DNA of 64,000 bases, from positions 302,050 through 366,049 of the forward strand of contig CAVXML010000006.1 in assembly GCA_963763015.1 (NCBI GenBank). Reading direction: 5' to 3'. Below, piece after piece: positions 1 to 64,000 of this stretch. The notes below the pieces were generated by a model that ran no database searches, had not been told where the DNA came from, and saw nothing but the letters and a program-made list of their open reading frames with translations. A program made the translations under genes and the position numbers. Position 1 is the stretch's first letter. Every line of letters begins with the position of its first letter. The DNA is from an uncultured Actinomycetota bacterium. Its GTDB lineage: Bacteria; Actinomycetota; Actinomycetes; Actinomycetales; Dermatophilaceae.

Positions 1-1012
1 CGTGGCAGAACCGGACGGCGTCGACGGCGCCCAGCGATGCGGCATCCGCGATGACGAAGTAGGTGCCCTGCGGAACCGACACCTCCATTCCGGCCGTCCG
101 CAGGCCGGAGACGAGCCGGTCGCGCTTCGCCCGGAGCGAGCCGGCCAGGTCCACGTACACGGCATCCGGCAGTGCAAGGCCCACCGCGACGGCCGGTTGG
201 AAGGGGCCCGACCCGACATAGGTGAGGAACTGCTTCACCGCCCGGACCGCCGCGACGGCCTCGGCCGGGCCGGACACCCAGCCCACCTTCCACCCCGTCG
301 TCGAGAAGGTCTTGCCGGCGGAGGAGATCGTCAGCGTCCGGTCCCACATCCCGGGAAGCGAGGCGACGGGCACGTGCTGGGCACCGTCGAAGGTCAGGTG
401 CTCGTAGACCTCGTCGGTCACCACCCAGGCGTCGTGCTCGCGAGCGAGCGCGCACACGAGCTCGAGCTCAGCGGGGGTGAAGACCTTGCCGGTGGGGTTG
501 TGCGGCGTGTTGAGCAGCACGACCCTGGTGCGCTCGGAGAACGCGGCCCGCAGCGACGCCTCGTCGACGGCGAAGTCGGGGAAGCGCAGCACCGAGGTCC
601 GCCGCACCCCGCCGGCCAGGGCGATCGTCGCGGCGTAGGAGTCGTAGTACGGCTCGAAGGTCAGCACCTCGTCACCCGGCTGCACGAGCGCCAGGACGGT
701 CGCCGCGATCGCCTCGGTGGCGCCCACCGTCACCAGCACCTGCGTGAGCGGGTCGACCTGCAGCCCGTAGAAGCGCTCCTGGTGCTGCGCCACCGCGTGC
801 AGCAGCTCGGGCACGCCTGCGCCCGGCGGGTACTGGTTGCGCCCTCCGCGGATCGCCGCGACGGCCGCCTCGAGAACCTCGGGCGGTCCGTCGGTGTCCG
901 GGAAACCCTGCCCGAGGTTGATCGCTGCGTGTTCGGTCGCCAGCGCCGACATCGTCGCGAAGATCGTCGTCCCGAAGGACTCGAGCGCCGGGTGGCCGGG
1001 GGAGCGGGTCAT
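1..1012 (-). CDS. PLP-dependent class I/II aminotransferase (DapC/YbdL-like), 3' end truncated by the window edge
   Basis: Hand translation of the minus strand from ATG 1012 gives MTRSPGHPALESFGTTIFATMSALATEHAAINLGQGFPD, plus LNTPHNPTGK and DEVYEH motifs. Not in the ORF track because no stop lies inside the window. TACCCT box 6 nt before the ATG. Confidence 0.88.
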   Translation of the reverse strand, partial: MTRSPGHPALESFGTTIFATMSALATEHAAINLGQGFPDTDGPPEVLEAAVAAIRGGRNQYPPGAGVPELLHAVAQHQERFYGLQVDPLTQVLVTVGATEAIAATVLALVQPGDEVLTFEPYYDSYAATIALAGGVRRTSVLRFPDFAVDEASLRAAFSERTRVVLLNTPHNPTGKVFTPAELELVCALAREHDAWVVTDEVYEHLTFDGAQHVPVASLPGMWDRTLTISSAGKTFSTTGWKVGWVSGPAEAVAAVRAVKQFLTYVGSGPFQPAVAVGLALPDAVYVDLAGSLRAKRDRLVSGLRTAGMEVSVPQGTYFVIADAASLGAVDAVRFCH

Positions 1013-1126
1013 GGCCGCAGGGTATGCCGGGCCGGTGCCCAGCGGGTCGGATGCCGTGCCGTCAGCCTCGCCGCCCACTCGGCGAGCCCGGCGAGGGGGC
1101 GGGCGGCGGCAAGCGCAGGAGACACC

Positions 1127-1161
1127 GGGAGGGGCCGAGCACTCGGTGCCCGGCCCCTCCC
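1127..1161 (-). terminator. GC-rich hairpin downstream of the nuclease gene
   Basis: 11-bp perfect arms GGGAGGGGCCG (1127-1137) and CGGCCCCTCCC (1151-1161) with further internal pairing, about 18 nt after the stop at 1179. Confidence 0.55.
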
Positions 1162-1178
1162 TTCTGCGGTGTCGCGCC

Positions 1179-4100
1179 TCAGCCCACCGTGAGGGTGAAC
1201 GAGCTCGTCGTCCCGGTGCTGGGCACCGAGATGTCGAACCGCTGCACGCCACTGAGCCCAGCCGGCACCGTGAACGTCACGGTGGCCTTGCCGATCTCGT
1301 CCACCGTCGGCGTGAAGGCCCGGTCGACGGTCGCCGTGGCGAGCGTCTGCCCTCCATGGGAGACGACGACCGTGCCGGCGGCGGGCTCGGTGCGGCTGAA
1401 GTCGAGCGACGACAGGTTCACCGTCACCGACTCGCCCGGTGCATACGTGCCGTCACCCTGGACGTCCACGCCCACCGCCCGCTGCTTCACGTCCGGCGTG
1501 ATCGTGCCGAACTCGGCGAAGTAGTCGACCATCGACTCGAGGTCGATCTTGCCGCTGTCCGCCTTGTTCTTGCCCGATGCCAGTGTGAGGAAGTTGTCTC
1601 CACCGGCGGCGAGGAACGAGTTGGCGCCGACCGAGTAGGTCGTCGTGGGGAGGACAGGCTGCCCGCCCAACAGGATCTCGGTGATGCGCGATCCCACCGG
1701 CGCAGTGGGGTCGTACGTGTAGGTGAGCTCCTTGTTCACTCCGAGCTTGAGGAACGGCCGGGACGCGCCTGACGGCTGCCACTGCTCCTCGAGCACCTGC
1801 TTGACCTGCGCTCCGGTGAGTTCGAGCGTGACCAGGGTGTTCGCGAACGGCTGGACGTCGGCCGCCTCGCGGTAGGTGACCTCACCGCCGGCCAGGTCGG
1901 CGCGGAGGCCGCCCGGGTTCATGAACGCGATGTCCACGTCGCGGGTGCCGTCCTGCTCGAGCGACCACAGCTGCACGTCGGCCACCAGGTTGCCGAGCGT
2001 CGACTCCCCGCCACGGTTCTCGGGGAACGACGTCGCACCGACCGGGTTGGATGCCACGGCTCGACCGAAGTCGCCCGTCGCCTCACCGAGCACGACGCTG
2101 CCGAGCTCGTTGGCCACCGCCACCGCGTCGGCGACGATCGGCGCGACAGTCGGGTCGTCCGGGTAGATGGCGGCAGCGCCGTTCATGAGCGGGAGGATCT
2201 CGTTCTTCATGGTGAACTTCTTCGTCACCCGGTCGACCGTGATGTCCATCCGGGAGAACCGCTCGCCGTACTGACCGCTCGAGATCACCGGCCGGCCGTC
2301 GATCACGTGGTTGTAGGCGAGGTGGGTGTGACCGGAGACGATGGCATCGACGTTGTCGTTGGCGCCGTTGACGATCTTGCCGAACCGGGTGGACTCGTCA
2401 GTGGCTGTCTCGGGCTTCGTGTCGACAGCACCTTCGTGGACGAGCAGCACGACGATGTCGGCCTCGCCGTTCGCCTTCTTGCCGTCCGAGAGCTGGTTCG
2501 CCACCCGGTTCGCGGCCTCGACCGGCGGCCCCACCTCGATGTCCTTGATGCCGTCCGGGCTCACCAGCGAGGGGAGCTCGTCGGTGACCGCACCGACGAA
2601 GCCGATGGTGACCCCGTCGAAGGTCTCGGTGTAGTACTCGGGCAGGGCCGGGATGGTGGTGCCCTTCTCGTAGACGTTCGCGCCGAGGTAGTCCCACAGC
2701 GCCAACGGCATGACCCGGTCGGTGAGGTCCGTGAAGCCCTGGTCGAACTCGTGGTTGCCCACCGCGCTGACGTCCAGCCCTGCCGCGTTGAGCGCCTCGA
2801 TGGTCGGCACGTCCTGCTGGATGAAGGACGTGAACGTCGACGCCCCGATCATGTCCCCGGCAGCCGCGAACACGGTGTTCGGGTTGGCTGCGCGGATCTG
2901 CTTGACCGCGCTGGACAGGGCGGCGATGCCTCCGGATGGTGCCGACTGCTCGATGCGCCCGTGGAAGTCGTTGACGGTGACGAGGTCGATGTCCACGGTC
3001 GCCGGCACCTGCTCCGCACTGACGCCGACGAGGATCGGGTCGTGGTCGCTCGAGCGGAACGGCGTGCCTGGCTCGGCCGCGGGACCCCAGTACTCGCGAC
3101 CACTCCACTCGGGCGAGTTGATCGACCAGACCGCTGCCTTGGTCACCCGGTCGTTCGCCGCCGGGGACGCGATCACGTGGTCCAGGGAGCCCAGCTCGCC
3201 GTCGAACGTGTACGTGTACTGGCTGCTGCCCCGGCTGGGCAGCAGGTCGCTCCATCCTGCGTCGGTGAAGACCTTGATCGGGTCCTCCTTGGCGTAGGAG
3301 TTGAAGTCACCGACCAGGTAGACGGCGTTCTTCCGGCCGTCGGAGATGCTGTTCGCGAACGCGAGCAGCGACTGGGCCTGCTCCACGCGCTCCCCGTTGT
3401 ACGGGTCCTGGTTGGGCTCCGGCGTCGTGTCGGCGGGGTTGTTGCCCTTGGACTTGAAGTGGTTGCCGACCACGGTGACGAACTGCTTGCCGAACTTGAA
3501 CGTCTGGGCGATCGGCTCGCGGGCGATGTCCCACACGCTCTCGTCGATCACGGTCAGCGCCTCACCCGAGGGCTTGACGACGGCCGGCTTGTAGATGATT
3601 GCGTTCATGATGACGTCGGTGATGGCCGGGTCGTGCAGAGCGGCAGGCGTGCGCACGTAGTCCCAGACCGTCGACCCGGCGGCCTTGTTGAGGGCCTTCA
3701 CGAGCGTGGCGAGCGCCTCGTCGGGCGCCTCGCCGAGCTTGACCGAGTTCTCGATCTCCTGGAGGGCCACGACGTCCGCGTCCAGGCCGTTGATCGCCGT
3801 GACGATCTTCGACTCCTGGATGGCGAACTCCTCCGCCGTCTCCGCGCCGCGGGCGTCGGGGTTGTCCTCCGACAGAGTGGTGAAGTAGTTGAGCACGTTG
3901 AACGCTGCGACGGTGAGGTCGCCGCCCACCGCCGGTGCCGAGGCAGGTCGCGGGTTGCCGACGACCACCTTGTCGGCGTTGACGGTCGTGAACGTGGGCT
4001 TGAGGTCCGCCGTGCTTGCGTCGTTGACCGGTGTCGGGGGCTGGAGCCGCCAGTTGTTGAAGTCGTAGCTCAGCAGCGAGCCGCCGGCCGGGAAGTTCAC

Positions 4101-4913
4101 GACGTCGCCGTTGCGGACCACCACGTCCTTGGTGAAGTACGGCTGGTCGCCGGGGTGCGACGCGTTGTCGACTCGGATGCTGTAGCCGTCGTCGAGGAGG
4201 AGCCGGGCGTTGTTGTTCGCGGCGGTGACGTCGGTCGCAGCCTTCGTACCCGGTGCGGCGGTCTCGAACGCCTCGACCGGCATCGTGCTGCCGGCGCTCG
4301 TCCAGAGCTCACCGAAGGTCTGCAGGTTGTGGCTGGAGACGACCTTGTACGTCCCCGAGGGACGCACGAGCATGCCCTCGAACGCTTCCCGCGAGGCCCC
4401 GAGCACGGTGGCGGGCAGCGGGGTCACCGTGGGGACGCCGGCGGCGGCCTGCACGAGCTCGACCGAACCGACGGCCGTTGCGCTGATCTGCGTCGCACCG
4501 CTGAACTCGCCGGCTCTGCCGGTCACCGTGACCCTGTCCCCGATGGCAACGCCTGCTGCGGGGTTGTTTGATAGGAACACGAAGACACCGTCGGACGCGC
4601 CTGGTGTGGCATCCGTCGACCCGCCCGAACCGGCGGTCTGGACGTAGAGACCTCGGTAGCCACCGGTCCGGTGGTCACCGGTGACGATGCCCTCGACCGT
4701 GACAGTCACGCCGCTCAGCGGCGTCGCCGCGCCGGTGCCCTGGACCTGGGCGATCGTGTGGGTGACCTCGGCCGCCTGCGCCGGAGCGCTGCCGAGAAGT
4801 GAGATGCCGACGGCGGATGCCGTGGCCAGGGCTGTCGCTGCGGCGAACCGCCCGCGCGCCCGGCGTCGGACCGTCGCGGTTGCGGGTCCGACACCGTGGG
4901 GACGAAGGTGCAT
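1179..4913 (-). CDS. Secreted ExeM/NucH-family endonuclease fused to a 5'-nucleotidase
   Basis: 1244 aa. Arg-rich signal peptide ending AQA; OB-fold (VTVEGIVTG...GLYVQ); EEP nuclease motifs (AFNVLNY, LQEIE, NHFKSKG, GDFNSY, LDH, SDHDP); metallophosphoesterase motifs (NDFHG, GD, GNHEFD, GHTH) and 5'-nucleotidase C domain ([16 protein letters not shown]). Confidence 0.9.
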
Positions 4914-5126: not shown

Positions 5127-5347
5127 TAGACTGGACCCACGACCGGTCTCGGCCGGTCGAATTCGCGTGTCCTTCTCCTGCTCCCTCCGGGGACGCAGGG
5201 CACACCACGGCAGTGGCGGATCCGCTCCTTCGCGAGCACGGCATCCGTCCGGGGTGTGGCCGGGCACCAGGCAGGTGGACGACGACCCTCCAGCAGGAGG
5301 AATGCGCCGCCGACGGAACTGACAACCACAGAGCAAGGAGAACGGCC
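5127..5347 (+). promoter_or_regulatory. rpsB promoter (-10 TAGACT at 5127-5132) and ~210 nt 5' leader
   Basis: TANNNT box followed by a long GC-rich untranslated stretch and SD AAGGAG before the ATG at 5348. rpsB leaders are known sites of S2 autoregulation in other bacteria. Structure not computed. Confidence 0.45.
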
Positions 5348-6469
5348 ATGGCCGTCGTCACGATGCGCCAGCTCCTCGAGAGCGGCGTCCACTTCGGGCA
5401 CCAGACCCGACGGTGGAACCCGAAGATGAAGCGCTTCATCATGACCGAGCGCAACGGGATCTACATCATCGACCTGCAGCAGTCGGTGACCTACATCAAC
5501 AACGCGTACGAGTTCGTCAAGGAGACCGTCGCCCACGGCGGCACGATCCTGTTCGTCGGCACCAAGCGCCAGGCGCAGGAGCCGATCGCCGAGCAGGCGA
5601 CCCGGGTCGGGATGCCGTACGTCAACCACCGCTGGCTCGGTGGCATGCTCACCAACTTCCAGACGATCTCCAAGCGGCTCACCCGCCTCAAGGAGCTCGA
5701 GGAGCTCGACTTCGACGACGTGGCCGGCTCGGGCTACACGAAGAAGGAGCTGCTCATCTTCAAGCGGGAGAAGGACAAGCTCGAGCGCACCCTGGGCGGC
5801 ATCCGCACCATGGGCCGCGTCCCTTCGGCCGTCTGGATCGTCGACACCAAGAAGGAGCACCTCGCGGTCGACGAGGCCCGCAAGCTCGGCCTGCCCGTCA
5901 TCGCGATCCTCGACACGAACTGCGACCCCGACGAGGTCGACTACAAGATCCCCGGCAACGACGACGCGATCCGCTCCGTCACGCTGCTGACCCGGGTCAT
6001 CGCGGATGCCGTCGCCGACGGCCTGATGGCCCGCTCCGGCGGGGCGTCGGCCGAGGGCGAGGAGGCCGTCGCGGGTGACGAGCCGCTGCCCGAGTGGGAG
6101 CGCGAGCTGCTCGCCGGCGCCGCCGCCGAGACGGCGGAGCAGGTGGCTCCCGAGGCCGGCGACACCGCCGCGGCTCCGGCGCCTGAGGCCGCCGAGGCTG
6201 CACCGGTCGCGGTCGTGGAGACCCCGGCTCCCGAGGTCGCCGAGGCCATTGCCGAGGACACCCCTGCCGCCCCAGCTGCCGAGGCTCCGGTCGAGGAGGC
6301 CACCCAGGCTCCCGCTGCCGAGGCTCTCGCCGCGCAGGCCCCGGTCGAGGAGACCCTCGAGGCTCCCGTCGCGGAGGTCCTCGACGCCCCGGTCGCCGAG
6401 GCCCTCGAGGCCGAGGTCGCCGAGGCGGCCCCGGAGTCGGAGCCGGCCCCGGTGGCCGAGAAGGCCTGA
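5348..6469 (+). CDS. rpsB: 30S ribosomal protein S2 with a long acidic Ala/Glu/Pro tail
   Basis: [53 protein letters not shown]; SD AAGGAG upstream. Confidence 0.98.
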
Positions 6470-6520: not shown

Positions 6521-7351
6521 ATGGCGAACTACACCGCCGCTGACATCAAGGCGCTGCGCGAGAAGACCGCGGCCGGGATGATGGACGTCAAGAAGGCACT
6601 CGACGAGGCCGACGGCGACATGGCGCAGGCCGAGGAGCTGCTGCGCGTCAAGGGCCTGAAGGGCGTGACCAAGCGGGAGGGCCGCACGGCATCCAACGGC
6701 CTGGTCACCGCGCAGGCCGGCGCCGGCGAGGGCACCCTGGTCGAGGTGCTCTGCGAGACCGACTTCGTCGCGAAGGGCGAGCGCTTCGGCGCCCTGGCGC
6801 AGCAGGTGCTGACCCAGGCGGTCGCCACCAGGGCCGGCGACGCCGACGCGCTGCTCACCTCGACGCTTCCGGAGGGCAAGTCCGTCAAGGAGCTGCTCGA
6901 CGAGGCCAACGCCACCATCGGCGAGAAGATCGAGGTCAAGCGCGTGGCCCGCCTCGAGGGCGAGCACGTCGTGTCCTACCTGCACAAGACCAGCCCCGAC
7001 CTGCCCGCGCAGATCGGGGTGCTCGTGGCGACCGCCGGTGGCGACGAGCAGACGGCCCGTGACGTCGCGATGCACATCGCCGCGTTCAGCCCGAGCGTGC
7101 TCACCCGCGACGACGTCGACACCGAGACCGTGGAGAACGAGCGTCGCCTCGCCGAGGCCACGGCCAAGGAGGAGGGCAAGCCCGAGGCCGCCCTGCCCAG
7201 GATCGTCGAGGGCCGGGTCAACGGCTACTTCAAGGAGAACGTCCTGCTCGAGCAGCCGTTCGCGAAGGAGCCCAAGAAGACCGTCGACAAGGTGCTCCAG
7301 GAGGCCGGGGCCCGCGCCACCGGGTTCGCCCGCTACCGCGTCGGCGGCTGA
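6521..7351 (+). CDS. tsf: Elongation factor Ts
   Basis: MANYTAADIKALREKTAAGMMDVKKAL, CETDFVAK, AMHIAA, LLEQPF; follows rpsB. Confidence 0.98.
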   Translation: MANYTAADIKALREKTAAGMMDVKKALDEADGDMAQAEELLRVKGLKGVTKREGRTASNGLVTAQAGAGEGTLVEVLCETDFVAKGERFGALAQQVLTQAVATRAGDADALLTSTLPEGKSVKELLDEANATIGEKIEVKRVARLEGEHVVSYLHKTSPDLPAQIGVLVATAGGDEQTARDVAMHIAAFSPSVLTRDDVDTETVENERRLAEATAKEEGKPEAALPRIVEGRVNGYFKENVLLEQPFAKEPKKTVDKVLQEAGARATGFARYRVGG

Positions 7352-7378
7352 TCTCCCGACCCGTCGGTGCACCGACCG

Positions 7379-7416
7379 GATGCCGTCCGCTCACCTCCAC
7401 GTGAGCGGGCGGCATC
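7379..7416 (+). terminator. Strong hairpin after tsf
   Basis: 16-bp arms GATGCCGTCCGCTCAC (7379-7394) and GTGAGCGGGCGGCATC (7401-7416) with one G-U pair and a 6-nt loop; preceded by the 14-bp palindrome GTCGGTGCACCGAC (7363-7376). Confidence 0.6.
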
Positions 7417-7776: not shown

Positions 7777-8535
7777 GTGACCACCCATGCCCTCACCGAG
7801 GAAGCACCGACGTCCGAGGTGCGGCGCTCGAGCCGTCGGGTGCTCCTCAAGCTCTCGGGCGAGGTCTTCGGCGGGGGCCGGGTGGGGGTCGACCCGGACG
7901 TCGTCCGGGCGATCGCGCAGCAGATCGCGGTCGCCGTGCGCGAGGGCGTCCAGGTGGCCGTCGTCGTGGGCGGAGGCAACTTCTTCCGGGGAGCCGAGCT
8001 GGAGCAGAAGGGGATGGAGCGGTCCCGGGCGGACTACATGGGCATGCTCGGCACCGTGATGAACTGCCTCGCCCTCCAGGACTTCCTCGAGAAGGAGGGC
8101 ATCGACACGCGGGTGCAGACCGCGATCGCGATGGGCCAGGTCGCCGAGCCGTACATCCCGCGCCGCGCCATCCGCCACCTCGAGAAGGGGCGAGTCGTGA
8201 TCTTCGGCGCCGGTGCCGGGATGCCGTACTTCTCCACCGACACGGTGAGCGCGCAGCGGGCGCTGGAGTGCAAGTGCGACGCCGTGCTGATGTCCAAGAA
8301 CGGGGTCGACGGGGTGTACGACGCCGACCCCCGGACCACGCCGCACGCCCGCAAGCTCGACCGGGTGACATTCTCGGAGGCGCTGCGCACCAACCTGCGG
8401 GTCGTCGACGCCGCGGCGTTCAGCCTGTGCATGGAGAACCGCCTGCCCATGGTGGTGTTCGGGATGGAGGGGGACGGCAACATCACCCGCGCGCTGCGGG
8501 GTGACCCGATCGGCACCCTGGTCTCCGCGGGGTGA
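7777..8535 (+). CDS. pyrH: Uridylate kinase
   Basis: [43 protein letters not shown]; GTG start after GAGGAGG. Confidence 0.97.
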
Positions 8536-33450: not shown

Positions 33451-34611
<1,161 letters not shown>

Positions 34612-43938: not shown

Positions 43939-45924
<1,986 letters not shown>

Positions 45925-55741: not shown

Positions 55742-56835
55742 ACAGCTGGGCCCGCCACGACGTCGGGCTCTACCTCGCCGCCGGAGGGGCGTCTGTGGTC
55801 GGCTCTCTCCTCGTGTGGTCGGCCACGGCGCGCACCGACGGTGCGGCATACCTGGTCCGTCACCTCGTCGCCGCGGGGCTGGGCGCCGGGCTCGCCGTGC
55901 TCGTGAGCCGCGCCGGCCAGTACCGGGTGAGGATGTCGGCACCGTGGGTGTACGGCGGTTCGCTCCTCGCGCTGCTGGCGGTGCTGACGCCGCTCGGGCG
56001 CACCGTGAACGGGTCGCGGTCGTGGATCCCGCTGGTCGGCGGCTTCACCGTGCAGCCGGCCGAGGTCGCGAAGGTGGGTCTGTGCCTGGCGCTCGCGACG
56101 CTTCTGGCCACCCGCGTCGACCGGGGGCTCGCGCCCGGCCTGCGCGAGCTGCTGCTCGCGGCGCTCCTGGTGGCGCTGCCCGTCGTCCTCGTCCTGATGC
56201 AGCCGGACCTCGGTTCCGCCGGGGTCGTCCTCGCCCTCGGTGCCGTCGTCGTGGCGGTGGCCGGCGCCCCGCGCCGCTGGCTGGTCGGCGCCAGCCTGCT
56301 CGCAGCGGCCGTGGTGGTCCTCGTGCTCACGACTCCGGTTCTCACCGACTACCAGCGCGACCGCATCACCTCCTTCGCCGACCCCTCCGCGGACCCCCAG
56401 GGCAGCGGCTACCAGACGCGGCAGGTCCGGCTCGCGATCGGCGCCGGAGGACTGTGGGGGCGTGGCTTCATGGAGGGGGAGCGCACCCAGGGGGGTCTCG
56501 TGCCGTACCAGCTCAACGACTTCGTCTTCTCGGTGGCCGGCGAGGAGCTCGGGTTCGTGGGCGCCGGGGGGCTGATCGTGCTCCTGGCCTTCGTCGTGGT
56601 GCGGATCCTGGTCGTCGCGTCGCGGGCCGGGGACGGCTTCGGACGGCTCCTGGGAGTCGGGGTGGCGGCGTGGCTGGCGGTGCAGGTGGTGCAGAACGTC
56701 GGCATGAACCTCGGCCTTCTCCCGGTCACGGGGCTGCCGTTGCCCTTCGTGTCGTACGGGGGGTCCTCGATGGTGGTCTGCTGGGTGGCCGTGGGGCTCG
56801 TGGATGCCGCCCACGTCGAGGCGACCCGCCGGTAA
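55705..56835 (+). CDS. SEDS family peptidoglycan polymerase (RodA/FtsW-like)
   Basis: GSRSWI, QPAEVAK, QPDLG, GYQ...AIGAGG, DFVFSVAGEELG, GLPLPFVSYGGSS. Start uncertain; GTG 55705 overlaps ribF by 37 nt. Confidence 0.88.
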   Translation: MSRAADQDRPGLNSWARHDVGLYLAAGGASVVGSLLVWSATARTDGAAYLVRHLVAAGLGAGLAVLVSRAGQYRVRMSAPWVYGGSLLALLAVLTPLGRTVNGSRSWIPLVGGFTVQPAEVAKVGLCLALATLLATRVDRGLAPGLRELLLAALLVALPVVLVLMQPDLGSAGVVLALGAVVVAVAGAPRRWLVGASLLAAAVVVLVLTTPVLTDYQRDRITSFADPSADPQGSGYQTRQVRLAIGAGGLWGRGFMEGERTQGGLVPYQLNDFVFSVAGEELGFVGAGGLIVLLAFVVVRILVVASRAGDGFGRLLGVGVAAWLAVQVVQNVGMNLGLLPVTGLPLPFVSYGGSSMVVCWVAVGLVDAAHVEATRR

Positions 56836-56909: not shown

Positions 56910-58781
56910 ATGCTCACCGCTTCTCCCCAGATCCAATCCCCGGCCGACGAACCTGTCGACCAGTCCGTCCTTGACAACGAGGCCCAGAGCGTCGGCCACC
57001 TGTTCCGGGACCGGGTGGCCGCCACGCCGGACCGGCCGGCCTACATGCACGCCGTCGTCTCCGAGTCCGGCGACGAGTGGGTGACCGTGACGTGGTCCGA
57101 GCTCGACGAGGTGGTCCGCGAGATCGGTGCCGGGCTCATCGCCCTCGGGGTCGAACCTGAGGACCGGGTGGCGATCGCGTCGAGCACGAGGTACGAGTGG
57201 GCCCTCGCGGACCTCGCCACGATGGTGGCCGGCGGCGCGACGACGACGATCTACCCGACGACCATGGCCGACGACGTGGCGTTCATCCTCTCCGACTCCG
57301 GGGCCAAGGTCGTCTTCGCGGAGAACGCCGAGCAGCTCGAGAAGCTCCGCTCGATCCACGGGAACACGCCGTCGGTGACCCGCGTGGTCGTGTTCGACGG
57401 CGCGGCCGACACCGACTCCTGGACGCTCACGCTCGAGGAGGTGCGCCAGCTCGGCCGGGAGTACCTCGCCGGTGACCCGGGGGCGATCGACGCGAGGATC
57501 GACGGCATCCGGCACGACCAGCTCGCGACGATCATCTACACCTCGGGGACGACCGGACGCCCCAAGGGTGTCCGCCTGCGGCACAGCGCGTGGACCTACG
57601 AGGGCGCCGCGGTGGCCTCCACCAACATCCTCTCGGAGGACGACCTGCAGTACCTCTGGCTCCCGCTCGCCCACGTCTTCGGCAAGGTGCTCCTGACCCT
57701 TCCGCTGCAGATCGGCTTCCCCACCGCAATCGACGGGCGGATCGACAAGATCGTCGACAACCTCGCCGTCGTCAAGCCCACCTTCATGGGTGCCGCGCCA
57801 CGCATCTTCGAGAAGGCCTACGGGCGCATCTCGACGATGATGCAGAGCGAGGGCGGCCCCAAGCACAAGCTCTTCGTCTGGGCGAGCGGCGTGGGTCGCG
57901 AGGTGAGCGAGCTTCGCGAGCAGGGGAAGAACCCCACCGGGCTGTTGGGAATCAAGTACGCCATCGCCGACAAGGTGATCGGCACCAAGATCCGCGAGCG
58001 TTTCGGGGGACGGATCCGGTTCTTCATCTCCGGCTCGGCCGCACTCAACCAGGACGTCGCGCGGTGGTTCGACGCCATGGGGATGCAGATCCTCGAGGGC
58101 TACGGCATGACCGAGACGGCCGCGGCCTCGTTCGTCAACCGGCCACAGGGGTACCGCTACGGCAGCGTGGGCTGGCCGCTCCCGGCGACCGAGGTGCGGA
58201 TCGCCGAGGACGGCGAGGTGCTCCTGCGCGGCCCCGGCAACATGGAGGGGTACCACAACAACCCCGAGGCCACCGCCGAGACGATCGACTCCGAGGGGTG
58301 GCTGCACACCGGCGACATCGGCGAGCTCGACGACCGGGGTTTCCTGCGTATCACCGACCGCAAGAAGGACCTGTTCAAGACCAGTGGTGGCAAGTACGTG
58401 GCCCCCTCGATCATCGAGTCGACCTTCAAGGGCCTGTGCCCCTACGCGAGCCAGCTCGTCGTGCACGGCGCAGACCGCAACTTCGTGTCGGCCCTGGTCA
58501 CCCTCGACCCCGACGCCGTCCAGGGCTGGGCGGCCCAGAACGGCATGGAGGGGGCGTCGTACGAGGAGATCGTCTCCTCGCCCGCCTGCCGTGAGATGGT
58601 CGAGGGCTACGTCGACCAGCTCAACCAGAACCTCAACCGCTGGGAGACGATCAAGAAGTTCACGATCCTCGACACCGACCTCACGGTGGAAGAGGGTGAG
58701 CTCACGCCCAGCCTGAAGCTGAAGCGCAAGGTGGTCGCGGAGAAGTACAAGGACCACCTCGACGCGCACTACACCGCCTGA
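56910..58781 (+). CDS. fadD: Long-chain fatty acyl-CoA synthetase (AMP-binding)
   Basis: IYTSGTTGRPKG, EGYGMTE, HTGDIG, ITDRKKDL. Confidence 0.9.
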   Translation: MLTASPQIQSPADEPVDQSVLDNEAQSVGHLFRDRVAATPDRPAYMHAVVSESGDEWVTVTWSELDEVVREIGAGLIALGVEPEDRVAIASSTRYEWALADLATMVAGGATTTIYPTTMADDVAFILSDSGAKVVFAENAEQLEKLRSIHGNTPSVTRVVVFDGAADTDSWTLTLEEVRQLGREYLAGDPGAIDARIDGIRHDQLATIIYTSGTTGRPKGVRLRHSAWTYEGAAVASTNILSEDDLQYLWLPLAHVFGKVLLTLPLQIGFPTAIDGRIDKIVDNLAVVKPTFMGAAPRIFEKAYGRISTMMQSEGGPKHKLFVWASGVGREVSELREQGKNPTGLLGIKYAIADKVIGTKIRERFGGRIRFFISGSAALNQDVARWFDAMGMQILEGYGMTETAAASFVNRPQGYRYGSVGWPLPATEVRIAEDGEVLLRGPGNMEGYHNNPEATAETIDSEGWLHTGDIGELDDRGFLRITDRKKDLFKTSGGKYVAPSIIESTFKGLCPYASQLVVHGADRNFVSALVTLDPDAVQGWAAQNGMEGASYEEIVSSPACREMVEGYVDQLNQNLNRWETIKKFTILDTDLTVEEGELTPSLKLKRKVVAEKYKDHLDAHYTA

Positions 58782-58896: not shown

Positions 58897-59484
58897 TCAG
58901 TCGGTGATCAGCGGCACGAACCGGTAGGCCCCGTGGGTGCTCACCCTGCGCCCACCCTCGGCTGTCTCGTCGCGCTGCACCCGCAGCATCCGCCCGCCGA
59001 CCGGCGCCACGAGGATGCCGTCCGGCCGCAGCTGGGCGACGAGCTCCTCCGGCAGGGTCCTTGCCATGGCCGAGACGAGGATCCGGTCGAAGGGCGCCTC
59101 GTCGGGCGCCCCGAGCACCCCCGGCGCCGCCGCGCGGATGCGAGCCCACGGCATCCGCTCGGCAGCAACGGCAGCCGAGCCCGACACCACGAGATCCGGC
59201 ACGCGCTCCACCCCGAGGACAGACCCGGTCGGGCCCACGAGCTCGGCCAGCAGCGCGGTGGTCCAGCCCGAGCCCGAACCGACGTCGAGGACCCGGTGCC
59301 CGGGGCCGACGTCGAGGAGCTCGATCATCGCGAGCACGGTGCTCGGCTGGCTGTTCGTCTGGCCGTGCCCGATGTCGAGGGGGCCGTCGTGGCGGGCCCT
59401 CCGCCGGACCGCTCGGGGGAGGAACCGCTCGCGAGGGTGGGCCGCCATCGCGGCCTGCACGCGCTCCCGGCCCGCCACGCTCAC
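58897..59484 (-). CDS. pcm: Protein-L-isoaspartate O-methyltransferase family
   Basis: PRERFLP, IGHGQTNSQP, VLDVGSGSGWTTALLA, PFDRILVSA, YRFVPL. Confidence 0.85.
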   Translation of the reverse strand: MSVAGRERVQAAMAAHPRERFLPRAVRRRARHDGPLDIGHGQTNSQPSTVLAMIELLDVGPGHRVLDVGSGSGWTTALLAELVGPTGSVLGVERVPDLVVSGSAAVAAERMPWARIRAAAPGVLGAPDEAPFDRILVSAMARTLPEELVAQLRPDGILVAPVGGRMLRVQRDETAEGGRRVSTHGAYRFVPLITD

Positions 59485-60860
59485 CCCGCCAGGTCTGCCA
59501 GGGCGGTCTCGACCGCACGGGTGAAGGTCGGGTACGCGAGGGGCATCGCCCGCAGGGTGGTCGTCGGGATGCGCGCGTGCACCGCCGTCGCCAGCATCGA
59601 GAGCACCTCCCCGCCCATGGGTCCCACCGAGGTCGCCCCGACCAGGTGGCCCGCGGTGCGGTCCTCGACGAGCTTGATGACGCCCCTCCCTCCGGGCCCG
59701 TGGATCCAGCCGCGCGTCGAGGCGGCCAGGGGTGCGCAGCCCACGGCGACCTCGACCCCTGCCTCGCGGGCCCGCTCCTCCGTCATCCCGACCGAGCCGA
59801 CCTCGGGGTCCGTGTAGGTCACCCGGGGCACCGCGTGGTACTCCGCCGGGGAACCGTCGCGCCCGAGGACGTCGCGCAGGGCGACCGCCGCCTGGTACAT
59901 CGACACGTGCGTGAACGCCCCCTTCCCCGTGATGTCGCCGATCGCCCAGAGGCGGTTCCCGGCGCGCATCCGCTCGTCGGTGTCGACGGCATGCGATGAC
60001 GGGTCCAGTCCCACGGAGTCGAGCCCGATGTCGCTGAGGTTGGGTCGTCGTCCGGCCGCCACGAGGAGCTCGTCGGCGACCACCTCCCGCGCGTCGCCGC
60101 CGGCGTCCGTCACCTCGAGGGTGAACGAGCCCGCTGCGTGCCGCACCGAGTGCACGGACGCGCCGGCCAGCACCTCGACACCGTCCTCGCCGAGGGCCTC
60201 GGCCACGACGTCGGACGCCTCGGGCTCCTCGGCCGCGAGGATGCGCGGTGCCGCCTCGACGAGCGTGACCCGCGTCCCGAACCTCGCGAACGCCTGGGCC
60301 AGCTCGACGCCGATCGCTCCGCCGCCCACGACGACCATGGATGCCGGGAGCCGCGGCGTGGCGAGCGCCTCCCGGTTCGTCCAGTACGGGGTGTCCTCGA
60401 GGCCGTCCACCGGGGGAGCGGAGGGAGTGGTGCCGGTGTTGAGCACGACCCCACGGGCAGCGGTGTAGCGGGTGCCGTCGACCTCGACCACGCCCGGGGC
60501 CGTGAGTCGGCCATGGCCGCGCACGAAGTGCACGCCCGCCTTCTCGAGACGCTCGACCGCCACTCGGTCGTCCCAGTCGTCGGTCGCCTCGTCCCGGATG
60601 CGCCGGTGGACGGCACCCCAGTCGAGCACGACGTCGGCGTCGCCGGCCAGCATGGCCACCCGGCGCGCCTCGGCCACGGTGTTCGCGGCCCGGATGGCCA
60701 TCTTCGAGGGGACGCATCCGTAGTAGGGGCACTCCCCTCCCACGAGCCGCTCGTCGATCCCGACGACCGACAGGCCGGCCCGAGCCGCCTCGGTCGCGAG
60801 GTGCTCGCCGCCGGGTCCGAGCCCGAGGACGACGAGGTCGACGGTGCGATCGCTGTTCAT
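59481..60860 (-). CDS. Class I pyridine nucleotide-disulfide oxidoreductase (Lpd/MerA-like)
   Basis: GLGPGG, GGECPYYGCVPSK, GGGAIGVE, AIGD, FTH, TYTDPE; C-terminal AYPT. Confidence 0.88.
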   Translation of the reverse strand: MNSDRTVDLVVLGLGPGGEHLATEAARAGLSVVGIDERLVGGECPYYGCVPSKMAIRAANTVAEARRVAMLAGDADVVLDWGAVHRRIRDEATDDWDDRVAVERLEKAGVHFVRGHGRLTAPGVVEVDGTRYTAARGVVLNTGTTPSAPPVDGLEDTPYWTNREALATPRLPASMVVVGGGAIGVELAQAFARFGTRVTLVEAAPRILAAEEPEASDVVAEALGEDGVEVLAGASVHSVRHAAGSFTLEVTDAGGDAREVVADELLVAAGRRPNLSDIGLDSVGLDPSSHAVDTDERMRAGNRLWAIGDITGKGAFTHVSMYQAAVALRDVLGRDGSPAEYHAVPRVTYTDPEVGSVGMTEERAREAGVEVAVGCAPLAASTRGWIHGPGGRGVIKLVEDRTAGHLVGATSVGPMGGEVLSMLATAVHARIPTTTLRAMPLAYPTFTRAVETALADLAG

Positions 60861-60983: not shown

Positions 60984-62966
60984 ATGCCCGGACAGTCCGT
61001 CTTCCGCTCCCTCGAGCCCTTGCTCGAGCAGGTGAGCAAGCCGATCCAGTACGTGGGCGGCGAGCTGAACTCGACCGTCAAGGACTGGGACGTCGCCGGC
61101 GACGCCACCGTCCGCTGGGCGCTGATGTACCCCGACGCCTACGAGGTCGGTGTGCCGAACCAAGGCGTCATGATCCTGTACGAAGTGCTCAACGAGCGCC
61201 CCGACGCGCTGGCCGAGCGCACCTACGCCGTGTGGCCCGACCTCGAGGCGCTCATGCGTGAGAACGGGGTGCCCCAGTTCACCGTCGACGCGCACCGGGC
61301 GGTGGGCGACTTCGACCTGCTGGGCATCTCCTTCTCGACCGAGCTCGGCTACACCAACATGCTCACCGCGCTCGACCTGGCCGGCATCCCGCTCCACGCC
61401 GCCGACCGCGACGACACGCACCCGATCGTGGTGGCGGGCGGCCACGCCGCGTTCAACCCGGAGACGATCGCCGACTTCGTCGACGCCGCCGTGGTGGGGG
61501 ACGGCGAGGAGGCCGTGCTGGCCATCACCGACATCGTCGGCGCCTGGAAGGGCGAGGGGATGCCGGGTGGCCGCCGTGAGCTCCTCCTGCGCCTGGCGCG
61601 GACCGGTGGGGTCTACGTGCCGGCGTTCTACGACGTGAGCTACCTGCCGGACGGGCGGATCCAGCGGATCGCCCCCAGCCCGGATGCCCCCGGCGTCCCG
61701 TGGCGGGTCGCGAAGCACACCGTCATGGACCTCGACGCGTGGCCGTACCCCAAGCAGCCGCTCGTGCCACTCGCCGAGTCGGTGCACGAGCGGATGTCGG
61801 TCGAGATCTTCCGCGGCTGCACCCGGGGCTGCCGGTTCTGCCAGGCCGGCATGATCACCCGCCCGGTGCGTGAGCGCAGCATCACCGGCATCGGCGAGAT
61901 GGTCGAGCGCGGCCTGGCCGCCACGGGCTTCGAGGAGGTGGGGCTGCTCTCGCTGAGCTCGGCCGACCACTCCGAGATCGCCGACGTCACGAAGGGCCTG
62001 GCCGACCGCTACGAGGGCACGAACACCGGGCTGTCGCTGCCGTCGACGCGGGTCGACGCCTTCAACATCGACCTCGCGAACGAGCTGACCCGAAACGGCC
62101 GCCGCTCCGGGCTGACCTTCGCGCCCGAGGGCGGGTCCGAGCGGATCCGCAAGGTCATCAACAAGATGGTCAGCGAGGACGACCTGATCCGCACCGTCGC
62201 GGCGGCCTACGGGGCCGGCTGGCGCCAGGTGAAGCTCTACTTCATGTGCGGTCTGCCGACCGAGACCGACGAGGACGTCCTCCAGATCGCCGAGCTCGCC
62301 AAGCGGGTCATCGACACCGGCCGCGAGGTGAGCGGCCGCCGCGACATCCGCTGCACGGTCTCGATCGGTGGGTTCGTGCCCAAGCCGCACACGCCGTTCC
62401 AGTGGGCCGCCCAGCTGGGCGCCGAGGAGACCGACGCGCGGCTGGACAAGCTGCGTCAGGCGATCCGCTCCGACCGGCGCTACGGCTCGGCCATCGGGTT
62501 CCGCTACCACGACGGCAAGCCCGGCATCGTCGAGGGGCTGCTCTCGCGCGGCGACCGCAGGGTCGGCCGGGTCATCGAGGCGGTGTGGCGCGACGGCGGG
62601 CGCTTCGACGGCTGGTCGGAGCACTTCTCCTACGACCGCTGGATGGCCGCCGCCGAGCGCGAGCTGGCTCCCTTCGGCGTCGACGTCGCCTGGTACACCA
62701 CCCGCGAGCGCGGGGAGACCGAGGTGCTCGCCTGGGACCACATCGACTCCGGCCTCGACAAGGAGTGGCTCTGGCAGGACTGGCTCGACGCGCTCGACGA
62801 GACCGAGGTCGAGGACTGCCGCTGGACGCCGTGCTTCGACTGCGGCGTCTGCCCCCAGATGGGCACCGAGATCGAGATCGGGCCCACCGGCAAGACGCTC
62901 CTGCCGCTCACCGTCCTCGGTGCCGGCCGAGCCCAGATGGCCGAGCACGTCCACGCCCACTCCTGA
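60984..62966 (+). CDS. TIGR03960-type B12-binding radical SAM protein
   Basis: KPIQYVGGELN, YPDAYEVG, EIFRGCTRGCRFCQAG, FVPKPHTPFQW, C-terminal CFDCGVC; TACCCT box 6 nt before the ATG. Confidence 0.9.
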   Translation: MPGQSVFRSLEPLLEQVSKPIQYVGGELNSTVKDWDVAGDATVRWALMYPDAYEVGVPNQGVMILYEVLNERPDALAERTYAVWPDLEALMRENGVPQFTVDAHRAVGDFDLLGISFSTELGYTNMLTALDLAGIPLHAADRDDTHPIVVAGGHAAFNPETIADFVDAAVVGDGEEAVLAITDIVGAWKGEGMPGGRRELLLRLARTGGVYVPAFYDVSYLPDGRIQRIAPSPDAPGVPWRVAKHTVMDLDAWPYPKQPLVPLAESVHERMSVEIFRGCTRGCRFCQAGMITRPVRERSITGIGEMVERGLAATGFEEVGLLSLSSADHSEIADVTKGLADRYEGTNTGLSLPSTRVDAFNIDLANELTRNGRRSGLTFAPEGGSERIRKVINKMVSEDDLIRTVAAAYGAGWRQVKLYFMCGLPTETDEDVLQIAELAKRVIDTGREVSGRRDIRCTVSIGGFVPKPHTPFQWAAQLGAEETDARLDKLRQAIRSDRRYGSAIGFRYHDGKPGIVEGLLSRGDRRVGRVIEAVWRDGGRFDGWSEHFSYDRWMAAAERELAPFGVDVAWYTTRERGETEVLAWDHIDSGLDKEWLWQDWLDALDETEVEDCRWTPCFDCGVCPQMGTEIEIGPTGKTLLPLTVLGAGRAQMAEHVHAHS

Positions 62967-63014
62967 CTCGGCCGCTCACCGCACCCCCCGGCCACCCGAC
63001 CCCGCTCCGGCCCG

Positions 63015-63091
63015 TCGACGCAACCTCTGCTAGCAGAGGTTGCGTCGAGGACCACAGGGTGCACCCTGTGGTCGTGTACCCAACCTCTGCT
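63015..63091. repeat. Adjacent perfect palindromes (34 bp and 24 bp) forming a third palindromic repeat type
   Basis: TCGACGCAACCTCTGCTAGCAGAGGTTGCGTCGA (63015-63048) and GACCACAGGGTGCACCCTGTGGTC (63050-63073); CAACCTCTGCT recurs at 63081-63091. Confidence 0.85.
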
Positions 63092-63176
63092 GGGCGAAAG
63101 TGCAGACGGAACACCGGGTTGTGTCGTCGCCCGCATGCCCAGGATGCCCATGCCTCGCCGGTGACAGGATGAGGCC

Positions 63177-64000
63177 GTGGCCTCCCCGAGCACGAGCAGC
63201 CGTCGGCGGTCGCTGCTCATGGGCACCGACTCGGGGCGGGATGCCGTCCGCCGCATCGCCGTGGCGGTGCTGGCCCTCGGCATGGTCACGATCGTTGGGA
63301 CGGTCGGCTACGTCGCGCTGGGCTTCGGTCCGATGGACGCGCTCTACCAGACCGTCACGACCGTGGCCACCGTGGGCTTCCGTGAGGTACAGCCTCTCGA
63401 CCACGCGGGCCAGCTGTTCACCATGGTCCTCATCGTCCTGGGCGTCGGGACCGTGCTCTACAACCTCGGGGTCCTCGTCGAGGCCGTCACCGAGGGCCAC
63501 CTGCGCGAGCACCTCTGGAGGCGTCGCATGGACCGGGACATCGCGCGGCTGCGCGACCACGTCATCGTGTGCGGGCACGGCCGGGTCGGCCGCGCCGCGA
63601 GCCGCCACCTGCTCGACGAGGGGCACGCCGTCGTCGTGGTGGACAGCGACCCGAGCCGGCTCGAGGGGCTCACCGACCCGCATGTCCTCGGCGACGCGGC
63701 GCGCGACGACATCCTGCGGGAGGCCGGCATCGAGCACGCGCGCGCGCTGATCTGCGCGCTCGGGACGGATGCCGAGACGATGTACGCGACACTCTCGGCA
63801 CGGGCCCTCCGGCCGGACCTCGTGATCATCAGCCGGGCCCGCACCCTGGACTCCAAGGAGAAGCTGGTCCTCGCCGGGGCCACCCGGGCGGTCAACCCAC
63901 AGCTCATCGGCGGGCGCCGGATGGCCTCGTTCGCCCTCCACGCCGACGTGGCGGAGTTCCTCGACGAGGTCATGCACGAGGACGACCTCGACTTCCGAAT
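63177..64000 (+). CDS. Two-TM potassium channel with TrkA-N/RCK domain, truncated by the window edge
   Basis: Hand translation: DALYQTVTTVATVGFREV pore segment, HVIVCGHGRVG Rossmann motif, LAGATRAVNP. Not in the ORF track because no stop lies inside the window. Confidence 0.85.
   Translation, partial: MASPSTSSRRRSLLMGTDSGRDAVRRIAVAVLALGMVTIVGTVGYVALGFGPMDALYQTVTTVATVGFREVQPLDHAGQLFTMVLIVLGVGTVLYNLGVLVEAVTEGHLREHLWRRRMDRDIARLRDHVIVCGHGRVGRAASRHLLDEGHAVVVVDSDPSRLEGLTDPHVLGDAARDDILREAGIEHARALICALGTDAETMYATLSARALRPDLVIISRARTLDSKEKLVLAGATRAVNPQLIGGRRMASFALHADVAEFLDEVMHEDDLDFR

Follow-up and report, generated by a model that had tools for sequence, protein, structure and literature searches.

The octamer GGATGCCG, together with its reverse complement CGGCATCC, is a genome-wide, unpolarized and position-independent iterated word in an uncultured actinomycete of the family Dermatophilaceae, limited by what the encoded proteins tolerate and denser where the DNA is unconstrained. 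It was analyzed in a stretch of 64,000 nucleotides (hereafter the window; GenBank assembly GCA_963763015.1, contig CAVXML010000006.1, positions 302,050 to 366,049), and constitutes a real signal at the DNA level that overrides codon preference, not a by-product of coding. Hyper-abundant words, such as the DNA uptake sequences (DUS) and uptake signal sequences (USS), the highly iterated palindrome HIP1, and Chi, are among the clearest signs of DNA-level processes shaping genomes, and the octamer is a new variety of such a word in a phylum without described ones. The searchable literature holds no description of either orientation as a word (matches within longer strings are primers) and no link between Microbacterium, where a related word occurs, and an over-represented octamer; actinobacteria are not mentioned in Bakkali 2007. 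The mix of properties is unmatched by any known class, the word being asymmetric (as are DUS and Chi), unpolarized (as are DUS and HIP1), hosted by Gram-positive high-GC bacteria, recently gained, and shared with small lytic phages.

Abundance of the Octamer in the Window

The window contains 67 exact matches, 36 as GGATGCCG and 31 as CGGCATCC on the + strand, with the outermost copies at 40-47 and 63767-63774 and a density of ~1 per kb (~1050 per Mb). An exact search thereby agrees with a preliminary description of the same DNA in number, strand distribution, and span, and the ~5-6 copies given there as the chance expectation are likewise supported: Markov models of orders 0 to 3 predict 5.5 to 9.0 copies, and 100 dinucleotide-preserving shuffles yielded 5.84 ± 2.27 with a maximum of 11. 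The real count corresponds to a 12-fold excess over the zero-order value and a 7.4-fold excess over the third-order value; models of higher order absorb the signal because their overlapping sub-words are themselves built from the motif. Orthologous DNA (1.17 Mb from 60 other high-GC actinobacteria, used as control DNA throughout) leads to an expectation of 11.9 copies. At a G+C content of 71.9%, GGATGCCG ranks second of all octamers in the window despite having A and T, and first in its composition class of 840 canonical octamers (mean 6.7).

Alignment of the 67 copies reveals no information beyond 8 bp except for a weak preference for T or C at position +9. The single-substitution variants of GGATGCCG each occur in the window at 0.75 to 1.8 times their control-DNA frequency; with one-off variants near the control level, all eight positions of the octamer matter. 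Neither the octamer nor the 9-mer CGGATGCCG has a symmetric centre, and GGATGCCG is not a palindrome. A longer motif, or a dispersed repeat of the repetitive extragenic palindrome (REP) or miniature inverted-repeat transposable element (MITE) type, was considered and rejected, as the flanks are unconserved and only two copies border a longer repeat.

Coding Context and Codon-aware Expectations

A gene map derived from codon statistics comprises 51 genes covering 92% of the window, with rpsB, tsf, pyrH, frr, rlmN, dxr, ispG, proS, nusA, and infB confirmed by family searches. The preliminary description had placed the copies in coding and intergenic DNA and in several frames, and five frame classes are indeed occupied. 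Gly-Ile pairs, already named there as part of the count, account for 19 of the 67 (xxC-GGC-ATC-Cxx, both top codons), Asp-Ala pairs for 16 (xxG-GAT-GCC-Gxx), Ala-Ser pairs for 11 (xCG-GCA-TCC), and Met-Pro pairs for 8 (xGG-ATG-CCG), with a single copy in CGG-CAT-CCG and none in GGA-TGC-CGx; the other 12 copies lie off genes or at a gene edge.

The word skews codon usage. GAT is rare in the window (47 compared with 1220 GAC), and 16 of these 47 codons sit within the word, so a third of the GAT codons in the window owe their existence to it. Within the context xxG-GAY-GCC-Gxx, GAT is used in 16 of 27 cases as compared with 47 of 1267 overall (Fisher p = 8e-18). The context xCG-GCN-TCC has the rare GCA in 11 of 12 cases (p = 1e-13) and never GCG. 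The rare-codon examples quoted earlier, in rpsB (6004), tsf (6687), ispG (33632), and proS (38145), hold.

Permutation of synonymous codons within each gene, which keeps the proteins and the codon counts of every gene, gave 12.1 ± 2.6 copies as compared with the 55 genic copies present (z ~16.5), and permutation of whole codons within genes gave 6.6. An analytic codon-pair Markov model reached ~25 copies, with pair counts that already include the signal. The preliminary description had named two findings that would refute it, loss of the enrichment under a codon-pair-preserving shuffle and equally frequent octamers of the same composition, and the signal withstands both. The sole octamer of that composition with a comparable count, CGAGGTCG, has 61 copies compared with 44 from the shuffle and 40 from control DNA, a count for which codon and amino-acid usage suffice. 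The z-scores from this shuffle were 16.7 for GGATGCCG, 3.1 for CGAGGTCG, 5.3 for CGACGACG, and 2.2 for CCTCGAGG. The last of these, a palindrome, was considered as a second iterated word on the basis of 28 sites (4.7 times the control from 60 actinobacterial loci) but proved ordinary: every site falls in the Leu-Glu frame, and 21 ± 3 are expected from synonymous shuffling. Its excess is also present in L001 and L002, the relatives described below, and the window has 98 CTCGAG.

Spacing, Orientation, and Non-coding Copies

Of the 64 kb, 4.9 kb (7.7%) are non-coding and contain 12 copies, which corresponds to 2.7 times the coding density (Poisson probability 0.007 given its share of the DNA; composition expectation 0.42). 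The distances between copies are Poisson-like, with a coefficient of variation of 0.99, and the genic copies comprise 24 in the sense and 31 in the antisense direction. The direction of replication was inferred solely from gene orientation. When the control loci are oriented with ispG on the + strand, the word is found 58 times on + and 158 times on -, a baseline of Gly-Ile pairs on the coding strand. The same scheme gives 58:77 for the Microbacterium loci and 36:31 for the window, where the excess over the baseline is symmetric in both, and this symmetry argues against Chi, the FtsK-orienting polar sequences (KOPS), and other polar signals. Strand symmetry had been raised against such polarity before, and the argument holds in the host loci as well as in the phages.

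Inverted pairs are limited to one hairpin of a copy and a near-copy past tsf and one intragenic pair (12-bp hairpin), the other 64 copies being single. The hairpin past tsf is a perfect 15-bp stem (GGAUGCCGUCCGCUC...GAGCGGGCGGCAUC) with the octamer in one arm and a 7-of-8 near-copy in the other; it resembles the terminators formed by DUS pairs, is not followed by a U-tract, and has no parallel elsewhere in the window.

A ~60-bp element is present twice, on either side of an unannotated gene on the - strand. Its two copies have an identical 36-bp core, TTTCCGGCGCCAGGGCACCGGAGATCACACGCACCC, each starts with CGGCATCC, and both form long hairpins (z -4.3 and -3.4). They may represent a REP/MITE-like element or two terminators. 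Four non-coding copies (7378, 24243, 34638, and 37358) are found 26 or 27 nucleotides past the upstream stop codon, which is probably a coincidence, as their orientations and surrounding sequences differ. No Rfam family was matched in the window.

Recent Gain by Point Substitution

A scan for IspG with one genome per species produced 80 loci of ~21 kb. No exact counterpart of the Tsf protein is on record, and a look-up among sequencing runs matched soil and rhizosphere metagenomes only, with at most 45% of the k-mers. The nearest relatives of the window are two soil metagenome-assembled genomes (MAGs), L002 and L001, which are syntenic with it and ~81% identical to it in nucleotides and 82-84% in amino acids compared codon by codon. 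Neither is enriched. The 21 kb of L002 contain 8 copies and the 12 kb of L001 contain 4; the ratio of GGATGCCG to GGACGCCG is 0.41 in L002, 0.62 in L001, and 0.1-0.9 in most controls compared with 2.85 in the window, and L002 reaches a z-score of 1.6 in the synonymous shuffle test. The control actinobacteria have 0.18 copies per kb, mostly in the GGC-ATC form.

Sixteen coding sites are comparable with L002, of which three are common to both genomes (all GGC-ATC), five differ by synonymous changes only, and eight include an amino-acid difference over the four codons. The coding sites absent from L002 differ by 1-4 substitutions and none is aligned to a gap, the few gapped cases being intergenic or at the edge of the alignment. 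As judged from these alignments, substitutions without gaps show that the copies arose individually, through point substitutions, once the lineage had separated from its nearest sequenced relatives, and a gain in the window lineage is parsimonious because other actinobacteria are also without the excess. An excess of amino-acid changes at the new sites was considered and rejected: 8 of 13 fits the background of 56% over four codons.

A Related Word in Microbacteriaceae

A second enriched lineage is found in a distant family, the Microbacteriaceae. The octamer occurs 30 times in 21 kb of Microbacterium sp. ARD32, 27 times in M. schleiferi, and 21 times in a MAG placed with Microbacterium on its IspG match and the shared motif, and is the top octamer in all three loci; M. 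aurantiacum has 29 copies, Microbacterium sp. C5A9 15, M. esteraromaticum 13, Cryobacterium 11, and Frigoribacterium 4 in 4.9 kb. Microbacterium sp. ARD32, M. schleiferi, and M. aurantiacum have 25-27 copies compared with ~5 expected from the synonymous shuffle (z 9-11). The words of Microbacterium that stand out most from the control loci are GGATGC (322 copies, 78 expected), CGGATGCC (105, 12.6 expected), CGGATGCCG (73, 8.5 expected), and ACGGATGCC (29, 1.2 expected), and variants at positions 6-8 are enriched too; the shared core CGGATGCC leads in Microbacterium and related Microbacteriaceae. The enriched variants indicate that the word there is (A)CGGATGC(C), which overlaps with, and is not identical to, the strict GGATGCCG of the window.

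Judged by the identity of Dxr, IspG, and ProS, the window stands no nearer to Microbacterium (68-72%) than to Streptomyces, and nearer to Kineococcus, Nocardioides, and Kribbella (74-77%), none of which is enriched. With the enrichment absent from these nearer taxa and present in Microbacteriaceae, the distribution is patchy. Between Microbacterium species (~75% nucleotide identity), ~30% of the sites are conserved in position as compared with ~17% for any 8-mer; the density of the word is kept while its positions turn over.

Several other loci have octamer palindromes of their own that hold A or T, namely ATCCGGAT in L006, GGCATGCC in L011 (Cellulomonas), ATGCGCAT in L072, and AAGGCCTT in L023, with both-strand counts of 6-10 compared with 0.1-1 expected. 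Lineage-specific iterated words may thus be common in Actinomycetota.

Distribution in Microbacterium Phages

Cluster EE phages (Orlajensenviridae) have genomes of 17 kb. Efeko, MasterPitts, Nobel, and Kaijohn, which have no annotated replication or recombination genes, carry 12-13 copies of the word compared with 3.2 expected from control DNA, and BonaeVitae of the same cluster carries 7 compared with 3.2. The synonymous shuffle gives 4.0 ± 1.7 for the 13 copies found (P<0.001), a ~3-fold enrichment. Zeta1847 (48 kb), with a primase and an exonuclease, has 17 copies compared with 8.8 expected. Franklin22 (40 kb), which encodes DNA polymerase I, a primase/helicase, and a Cas4-family exonuclease, has 5 compared with 7.5, and its relative BAjuniper has 5 compared with 4.1 in the 22 kb read of its 42-kb genome; the host of BAjuniper is the same M. 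foliorum strain as that of three EE phages. The temperate phage Min1 has 5 compared with 8.6, and its record includes 5.6 kb of host-like DNA that is also unenriched. Phages leaning more on host DNA transactions carry more of the word, a trend drawn from three phage lineages. The copies of the EE phages are scattered and occur in both orientations (4-5 on + compared with 8-9 on -), and Efeko and MasterPitts, at 77% identity, have only 5 of 9-12 alignable sites in common.

The EE phages (L082, L084-L087) also hugely over-represent the palindromes GCTGCAGC (PstI site) and GCAGCTGC (PvuII site), with both-strand counts of up to 50 and 42 per 17 kb (~25 and ~21 sites) compared with ~2 from actinobacterial DNA, and GACATGTC is likewise enriched. 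This may reflect tail proteins rich in Ala, Leu, and Gln or a separate signal. Six viral contigs of 52-63% G+C (L151, L148, L089, L141, L112, and L208) contain the octamer 5-9 times, dispersed over 7-15 kb. Having been selected for an inverted pair of the word, they have a high density by construction, and the ascertainment bias is strong. L151 and L148 are akin to phages of Faecalibacterium, and L112 is a Mu-like prophage of proteobacterial type. In Aster, an unselected Faecalibacterium phage, 8 copies compare with 1.9 expected, and the word is not among its top words. The word may be relevant outside Actinomycetota, the enrichment of the viral contigs being unconfirmed.

Comparison with Known Systems

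The mechanism behind HIP1 has been open for ~30 years. HIP1 (GCGATCGC) of cyanobacteria resembles the word in being an octamer at ~1000 per Mb in coding and non-coding DNA, with lineage-specific variants and a proposed repair drive; its density ranges from 300 to 2700 per Mb (PMC4390886). The window word differs in that it is non-palindromic, is without a GATC or CGATCG-type methylation site, has an actinobacterial host, and shows a zero-order observed/expected ratio of 12 compared with 19-228 for HIP1. The label HIP1-like, given to it earlier, stands as an analogy in density and behavior; the defining palindromy is absent, and GGATGCCG was rejected as a HIP in the strict sense on that ground.

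The words that orient FtsK or SpoIIIE, comprising KOPS, the SpoIIIE recognition sequences (SRS), and the architecture-imparting sequences (AIMS), are similarly 8-bp words recognized in the duplex but are strongly skewed to the leading strand, whereas the window word is not. Chi and KOPS were both rejected as identities, there being no polarity in the window, the Microbacterium loci, or the EE phages. In Escherichia coli, sequence-specific correction by Dcm and Vsr in very-short-patch (VSP) repair shifts the abundance of a word and its neighbors genome-wide. This offers a mechanistic template for a drive, but differs in its small effect, its palindromic pentamer site, and a measurable depletion of neighbors, none of which depletion was detected for the window word. 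No known system accounts for the word.

Possible Origin of the Word

A methylation-coupled repair drive has been proposed for HIP1 (Elhai 2015, PMC4390886). For the present word we tentatively favor, at a probability of about one in three, a mobile drive with sequence specificity, of the methylation/repair type, working on duplex DNA inside the cell. The putative factor would recognize duplex DNA symmetrically and bias fixation toward the word in whatever DNA the host replicates and repairs. A methyltransferase or binding protein with site specificity might play this part, coupled to mismatch correction in short patches, such that mismatches in near-cognate sites would be resolved toward the cognate word, and its determinant would be horizontally mobile with a specificity that drifts between lineages. 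The patchy distribution and the variation of the word between lineages (strict 8-mer compared with CGGATGC(C)) would fit such a mobile determinant. The phage result favors a process on DNA within the cell and lowers the reading as an uptake sequence; lytic phages do not evolve via host transformation, and an intracellular factor is therefore preferred over DUS/USS. The wider proposal, that an undescribed mobile drive writes GGATGC(CG) into any DNA the host maintains, including essential genes and host-dependent phages, in at least two unrelated actinobacterial lineages, is slightly less probable again. The preliminary description had offered methylation-directed repair, protein binding, or DNA uptake as the cause; the DNA-level motif is upheld, none of the three mechanisms is established, and the phages lower the last.

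A number of points weigh against this drive. The word is non-palindromic, unlike HIP1 and most Vsr-linked sites, an asymmetric 8-bp specificity is unusual for a methyltransferase, and VSP repair is documented to shift word frequencies in E. coli by far less than 5- to 12-fold. A conversion drive predicts depletion of one-off neighbors, which were not detectably depleted in the window, where counts are small. The scan of ~41 of the 51 proteins predicted for the window brought up no DNA methyltransferase, and the 64 kb yielded no Vsr-like endonuclease or other candidate determinant. The phage trend comprises three lineages, with the word density of the exact host strains outside the comparison, and the enrichment in phages could equally reflect selection to bind a host factor.

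Should the drive be real, the word would be the first of the HIP1/DUS class in Actinomycetota and the first with a non-palindromic, unpolarized site, and a culturable system (Microbacterium foliorum and the SEA-PHAGES phages) could show how such words arise. The contrast between sister lineages and the gradient among phages provide handles for finding the determinant, as Microbacterium is culturable and has hundreds of sequenced phages. The word will also affect k-mer binning, phage host prediction, and substitution models in these taxa.

The alternatives were ordered as an uptake sequence, a binding-site array, a deamination product, a Chi-like signal, and a coding artefact. The first would be a DNA uptake or self-recognition sequence of the type of Neisseria DUS or Pasteurellaceae USS, in which a receptor prefers word-bearing DNA and uptake with recombination spreads the word. 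To our knowledge, there is no report of a Gram-positive bacterium that takes up DNA by its sequence, and we know of no natural competence in Microbacterium; no competence system or receptor is known in these Gram-positive bacteria. The likeness is nevertheless extensive: an asymmetric word of 8-9 bp, present at ~1 per kb equally on both strands with random spacing, occupying every tolerated reading frame at the cost of rare codons (as for USS/DUS, PMC2817400), enriched 2.7-fold between genes, occasionally paired in inverted or terminator-like hairpins, varying between lineages like the family-level dialects of DUS (PMC3630211), and turning over in position at a maintained density. The word has in common with DUS/USS its DNA-level nature, lack of polarity, independence of position, origin by substitution, dominance over codon bias, restriction to a lineage, and recurrence in a second lineage with a shifted consensus; its partial mirroring in phages lies outside this pattern. 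Spread through transformation does not predict an abundance of ~3 times the codon-aware expectation in 17-kb Microbacterium phages that are lytic and do not integrate, and this weakens membership of the class, although the phage enrichment is seen for the Microbacterium form of the word and not in the window organism. Hairpin pairs are rare (one or two among 67 copies), and the window proteins that were scanned include neither a competence protein nor a pilin. We regard this explanation as unlikely, while still deserving weight. Somewhat less probable is an array of selected binding sites for an abundant host DNA-binding protein with a role in the nucleoid, in replication, or in self-marking for defence, the same sites being presented by host-dependent phages. 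Symmetric, duplex-type recognition without polarity, a phage enrichment that tracks dependence on host functions, and the requirement for all eight positions in the window agree with it. Site-by-site selection is hard to reconcile with ~1000 random sites per Mb, including sites in essential genes at the cost of rare codons, with their rapid turnover, and with close relatives that do without the word, and we know of no nucleoid protein with an exact asymmetric 8-bp site at such density.

A mutational hot spot, in which the position-4 C of methylated GGACGCCG deaminates to T and GGATGCCG accumulates, is improbable. Position 4 most often differs in the relatives, where it is usually C (7 of 13 hand-tallied comparisons with L002), GCG is absent from xCG-GCN-TCC as compared with 11 GCA, and GGACGCCG is somewhat depleted in Microbacterium (34 compared with 55.7). 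In the window, however, GGACGCCG is not depleted (23 compared with 28.1), 4 of 11 position-4 differences are G to T and not producible by deamination, all three position-4 alternatives are equally depleted in Microbacterium, and the ~55 excess copies exceed the whole expected precursor pool. Slightly more doubtful still is a Chi-like signal for RecBCD, AddAB, or AdnAB, which would label self DNA, promote repair by recombination, and be copied by phages without recombination functions of their own. Chi of E. coli (GCTGGTGG) is also an over-represented octamer carried by phages that lack their own recombination or replication functions and not by more autonomous ones: lambdoid phages without a recombination module are rich in it and those with a module lack it (PMC3784561, PMC12315714), a rule resembled by the enriched EE phages, which have no recombination genes, and the unenriched Franklin22 and BAjuniper with their Cas4-family exonuclease. 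Chi is, however, co-oriented with replication, and in lambdoid phages without the module it is oriented (20/23 and 32/32) and clustered at one end (PMC12315714), whereas the window word is unpolarized (36:31, and 58:77 in Microbacterium, symmetric after the baseline) and the EE copies are dispersed at 4-5 compared with 8-9 by orientation. That there is no special signal, the count being the product of dipeptides such as Gly-Ile along with the usage of codons and codon pairs, retains next to no probability. The 19 GGC-ATC copies, the mostly GGC-ATC copies of the controls, and the ~25 copies of the codon-pair model are what it can explain; the protein-preserving shuffle (12.1 compared with 55), the 27 copies on rare GAT or GCA, the 12 non-coding copies, the syntenic relatives that have the same genes without the excess, and the normal behavior of control octamers in the shuffle test exclude a pure coding artefact.

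Positions of the Copies and Neighboring Features

Copies of the octamer in the window, followed by other features discussed in the text (strand + for GGATGCCG and - for CGGCATCC in the case of the copies; codons in the reading direction of the gene)
Position	Strand	Gene or region	Codons	Remark
40..47	-	aminotransferase gene 1..1078(-)	GCG GAT GCC GCA	Asp-Ala frame, rare GAT
160..167	-	coding	CCG GAT GCC GTG	
1049..1056	+	coding	ACG GCA TCC GAC	Ala-Ser frame, rare GCA
4815..4822	+	ExeM/NucH nuclease gene 1179..4913(-)	ACG GCA TCC GCC	
5239..5246	-	intergenic		rpsB 101 nt downstream of copy
5610..5617	+	rpsB	GGG ATG CCG TAC	Met-Pro frame
5797..5804	-	rpsB	GGC GGC ATC CGC	Gly-Ile frame
6004..6011	+	rpsB	GCG GAT GCC GTC	
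6687..6694	-	tsf	ACG GCA TCC AAC	
7378..7385	+	intergenic		26 nt past tsf stop; base of 15-bp terminator-like hairpin, opposite arm near-copy CGGCATCg
8219..8226	+	pyrH	GGG ATG CCG TAC	
11314..11321	-	rlmN	CAC GGC ATC CCC	
11947..11954	-	coding	ATC GGC ATC CCC	
12972..12979	+	coding	GTC GGC ATC CCG	
13080..13087	+	coding	CGC GGC ATC CCG	
14699..14706	-	coding	CTG GAT GCC GGT	
15114..15121	+	coding	GCG GCA TCC GGC	
16090..16097	+	coding	ACC GGC ATC CCG	
16878..16885	+	coding	ATC GGC ATC CGC	
21028..21035	+	polyamine ABC ATPase gene	CGG ATG CCG TGG	
22660..22667	-	coding	CCC GGC ATC CTC	L002 has GGGCATCC (1 synonymous difference)
24243..24250	-	intergenic		next start codon 12 nt further
25477..25484	+	coding	GCG GAT GCC GTC	L002 GCC GAC GCC GTC, peptide unchanged
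29091..29098	+	dxr	GGG GAT GCC GGC	L002 differs, amino-acid change
29136..29143	+	dxr	GCG GAT GCC GCC	
31506..31513	-	intergenic		
31784..31791	+	coding	GGG GAT GCC GCC	
33632..33639	-	ispG	ACG GCA TCC GGC	L002 ACC GCC TCC, L001 ACG GCC TCC, peptide unchanged
34230..34237	-	ispG	GTC GGC ATC CAG	common to L001 and L002 (ancestral Gly-Ile)
34332..34339	+	ispG	GCG GAT GCC GTG	
34638..34645	+	boundary of next predicted open reading frame		26 nt past ispG stop
35056..35063	+	coding	CCG GAT GCC GTG	
35208..35215	-	coding	CCG GCA TCC GCG	
37294..37301	-	coding	TTC GGC ATC CGG	
37358..37365	-	intergenic		upstream of proS
38145..38152	+	proS	CCG GAT GCC GTC	
39290..39297	-	coding	CAC GGC ATC CCG	common to L002
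39563..39570	-	coding	CGC GGC ATC CGG	
40003..40010	+	coding	GTG GAT GCC GTC	L002 GTC GAC GCG GTC, peptide unchanged
40786..40793	-	intergenic		5' edge of ~60-bp hairpin repeat, first copy
41099..41106	+	coding	CAC GGC ATC CCG	
41824..41831	-	intergenic		5' edge of hairpin repeat, second copy
42367..42374	+	coding	GGC GGC ATC CCC	common to L002
42413..42420	+	coding	GCG GCA TCC GCG	
42613..42620	-	coding	GAG GAT GCC GCC	
44055..44062	+	coding	CCC GGC ATC CCG	inverted partner of 44071
44071..44078	-	coding	GGG ATG CCG GAC	inverted partner of 44055 (12-bp hairpin)
44305..44312	+	coding	ACG GCA TCC GCG	
47273..47280	-	intergenic		by codon-statistics gene map
47749..47756	+	intergenic		
49493..49500	-	nusA	CGG CAT CCG	sole copy in this frame
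49742..49749	-	intergenic		nusA/infB gap
50388..50395	-	infB	GCG GCA TCC GCA	
50661..50668	+	infB	GGG ATG CCG CGG	
52996..53003	+	intergenic		past infB
53564..53571	-	coding	CTC GGC ATC CGG	
53855..53862	-	coding	GCG GCA TCC ACG	
54539..54546	+	coding	CGG ATG CCG GTC	
56802..56809	+	FtsW/RodA family gene	GTG GAT GCC GCC	
57503..57510	-	acyl-CoA ligase gene	GAC GGC ATC CGG	
59013..59020	+	PCMT gene	GAC GGC ATC CTC	
59149..59156	-	PCMT gene	CGG ATG CCG TGG	
60339..60346	+	coding	CCG GCA TCC ATG	
61382..61389	-	radical SAM gene	GCC GGC ATC CCG	
61558..61565	+	radical SAM gene	GGG ATG CCG GGT	
63239..63246	+	coding	CGG GAT GCC GTC	
63767..63774	+	coding	ACG GAT GCC GAG	
1179..4913	-	ExeM/NucH nuclease gene		
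5348..6469		rpsB		
7378..7415		hairpin past tsf		
26921..28779		genes extra relative to L002		
31683..33392		genes extra relative to L002		
40786..40855		~60-bp element, first copy		
40830..41762	-	unannotated gene		between the two elements
41824..41890		~60-bp element, second copy		

The nuclease gene near the start of the window encodes a 1244-residue protein with an ExeM/NucH extracellular endonuclease domain (E 1e-149) and a 5'-nucleotidase/2',3'-cyclic phosphodiesterase domain. From its domains it looks to be secreted and to break extracellular DNA down to nucleosides, and it may be relevant to the handling of external DNA by the organism. Compared with the syntenic L002, the window has three extra genes, encoding a hemerythrin-domain protein, a LuxR-family regulator, and a solute-binding/VWA-domain protein, which by synteny appear to be small lineage-specific insertions within a conserved housekeeping region; the octamer is found only in the third (31784), with none in the hemerythrin or LuxR genes. 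The product of rpsB is a 373-residue S2 protein with a long C-terminal extension, which matches the NCBIfam 'sunset domain variant' at 523.9 bits, under the cut-off of 710.

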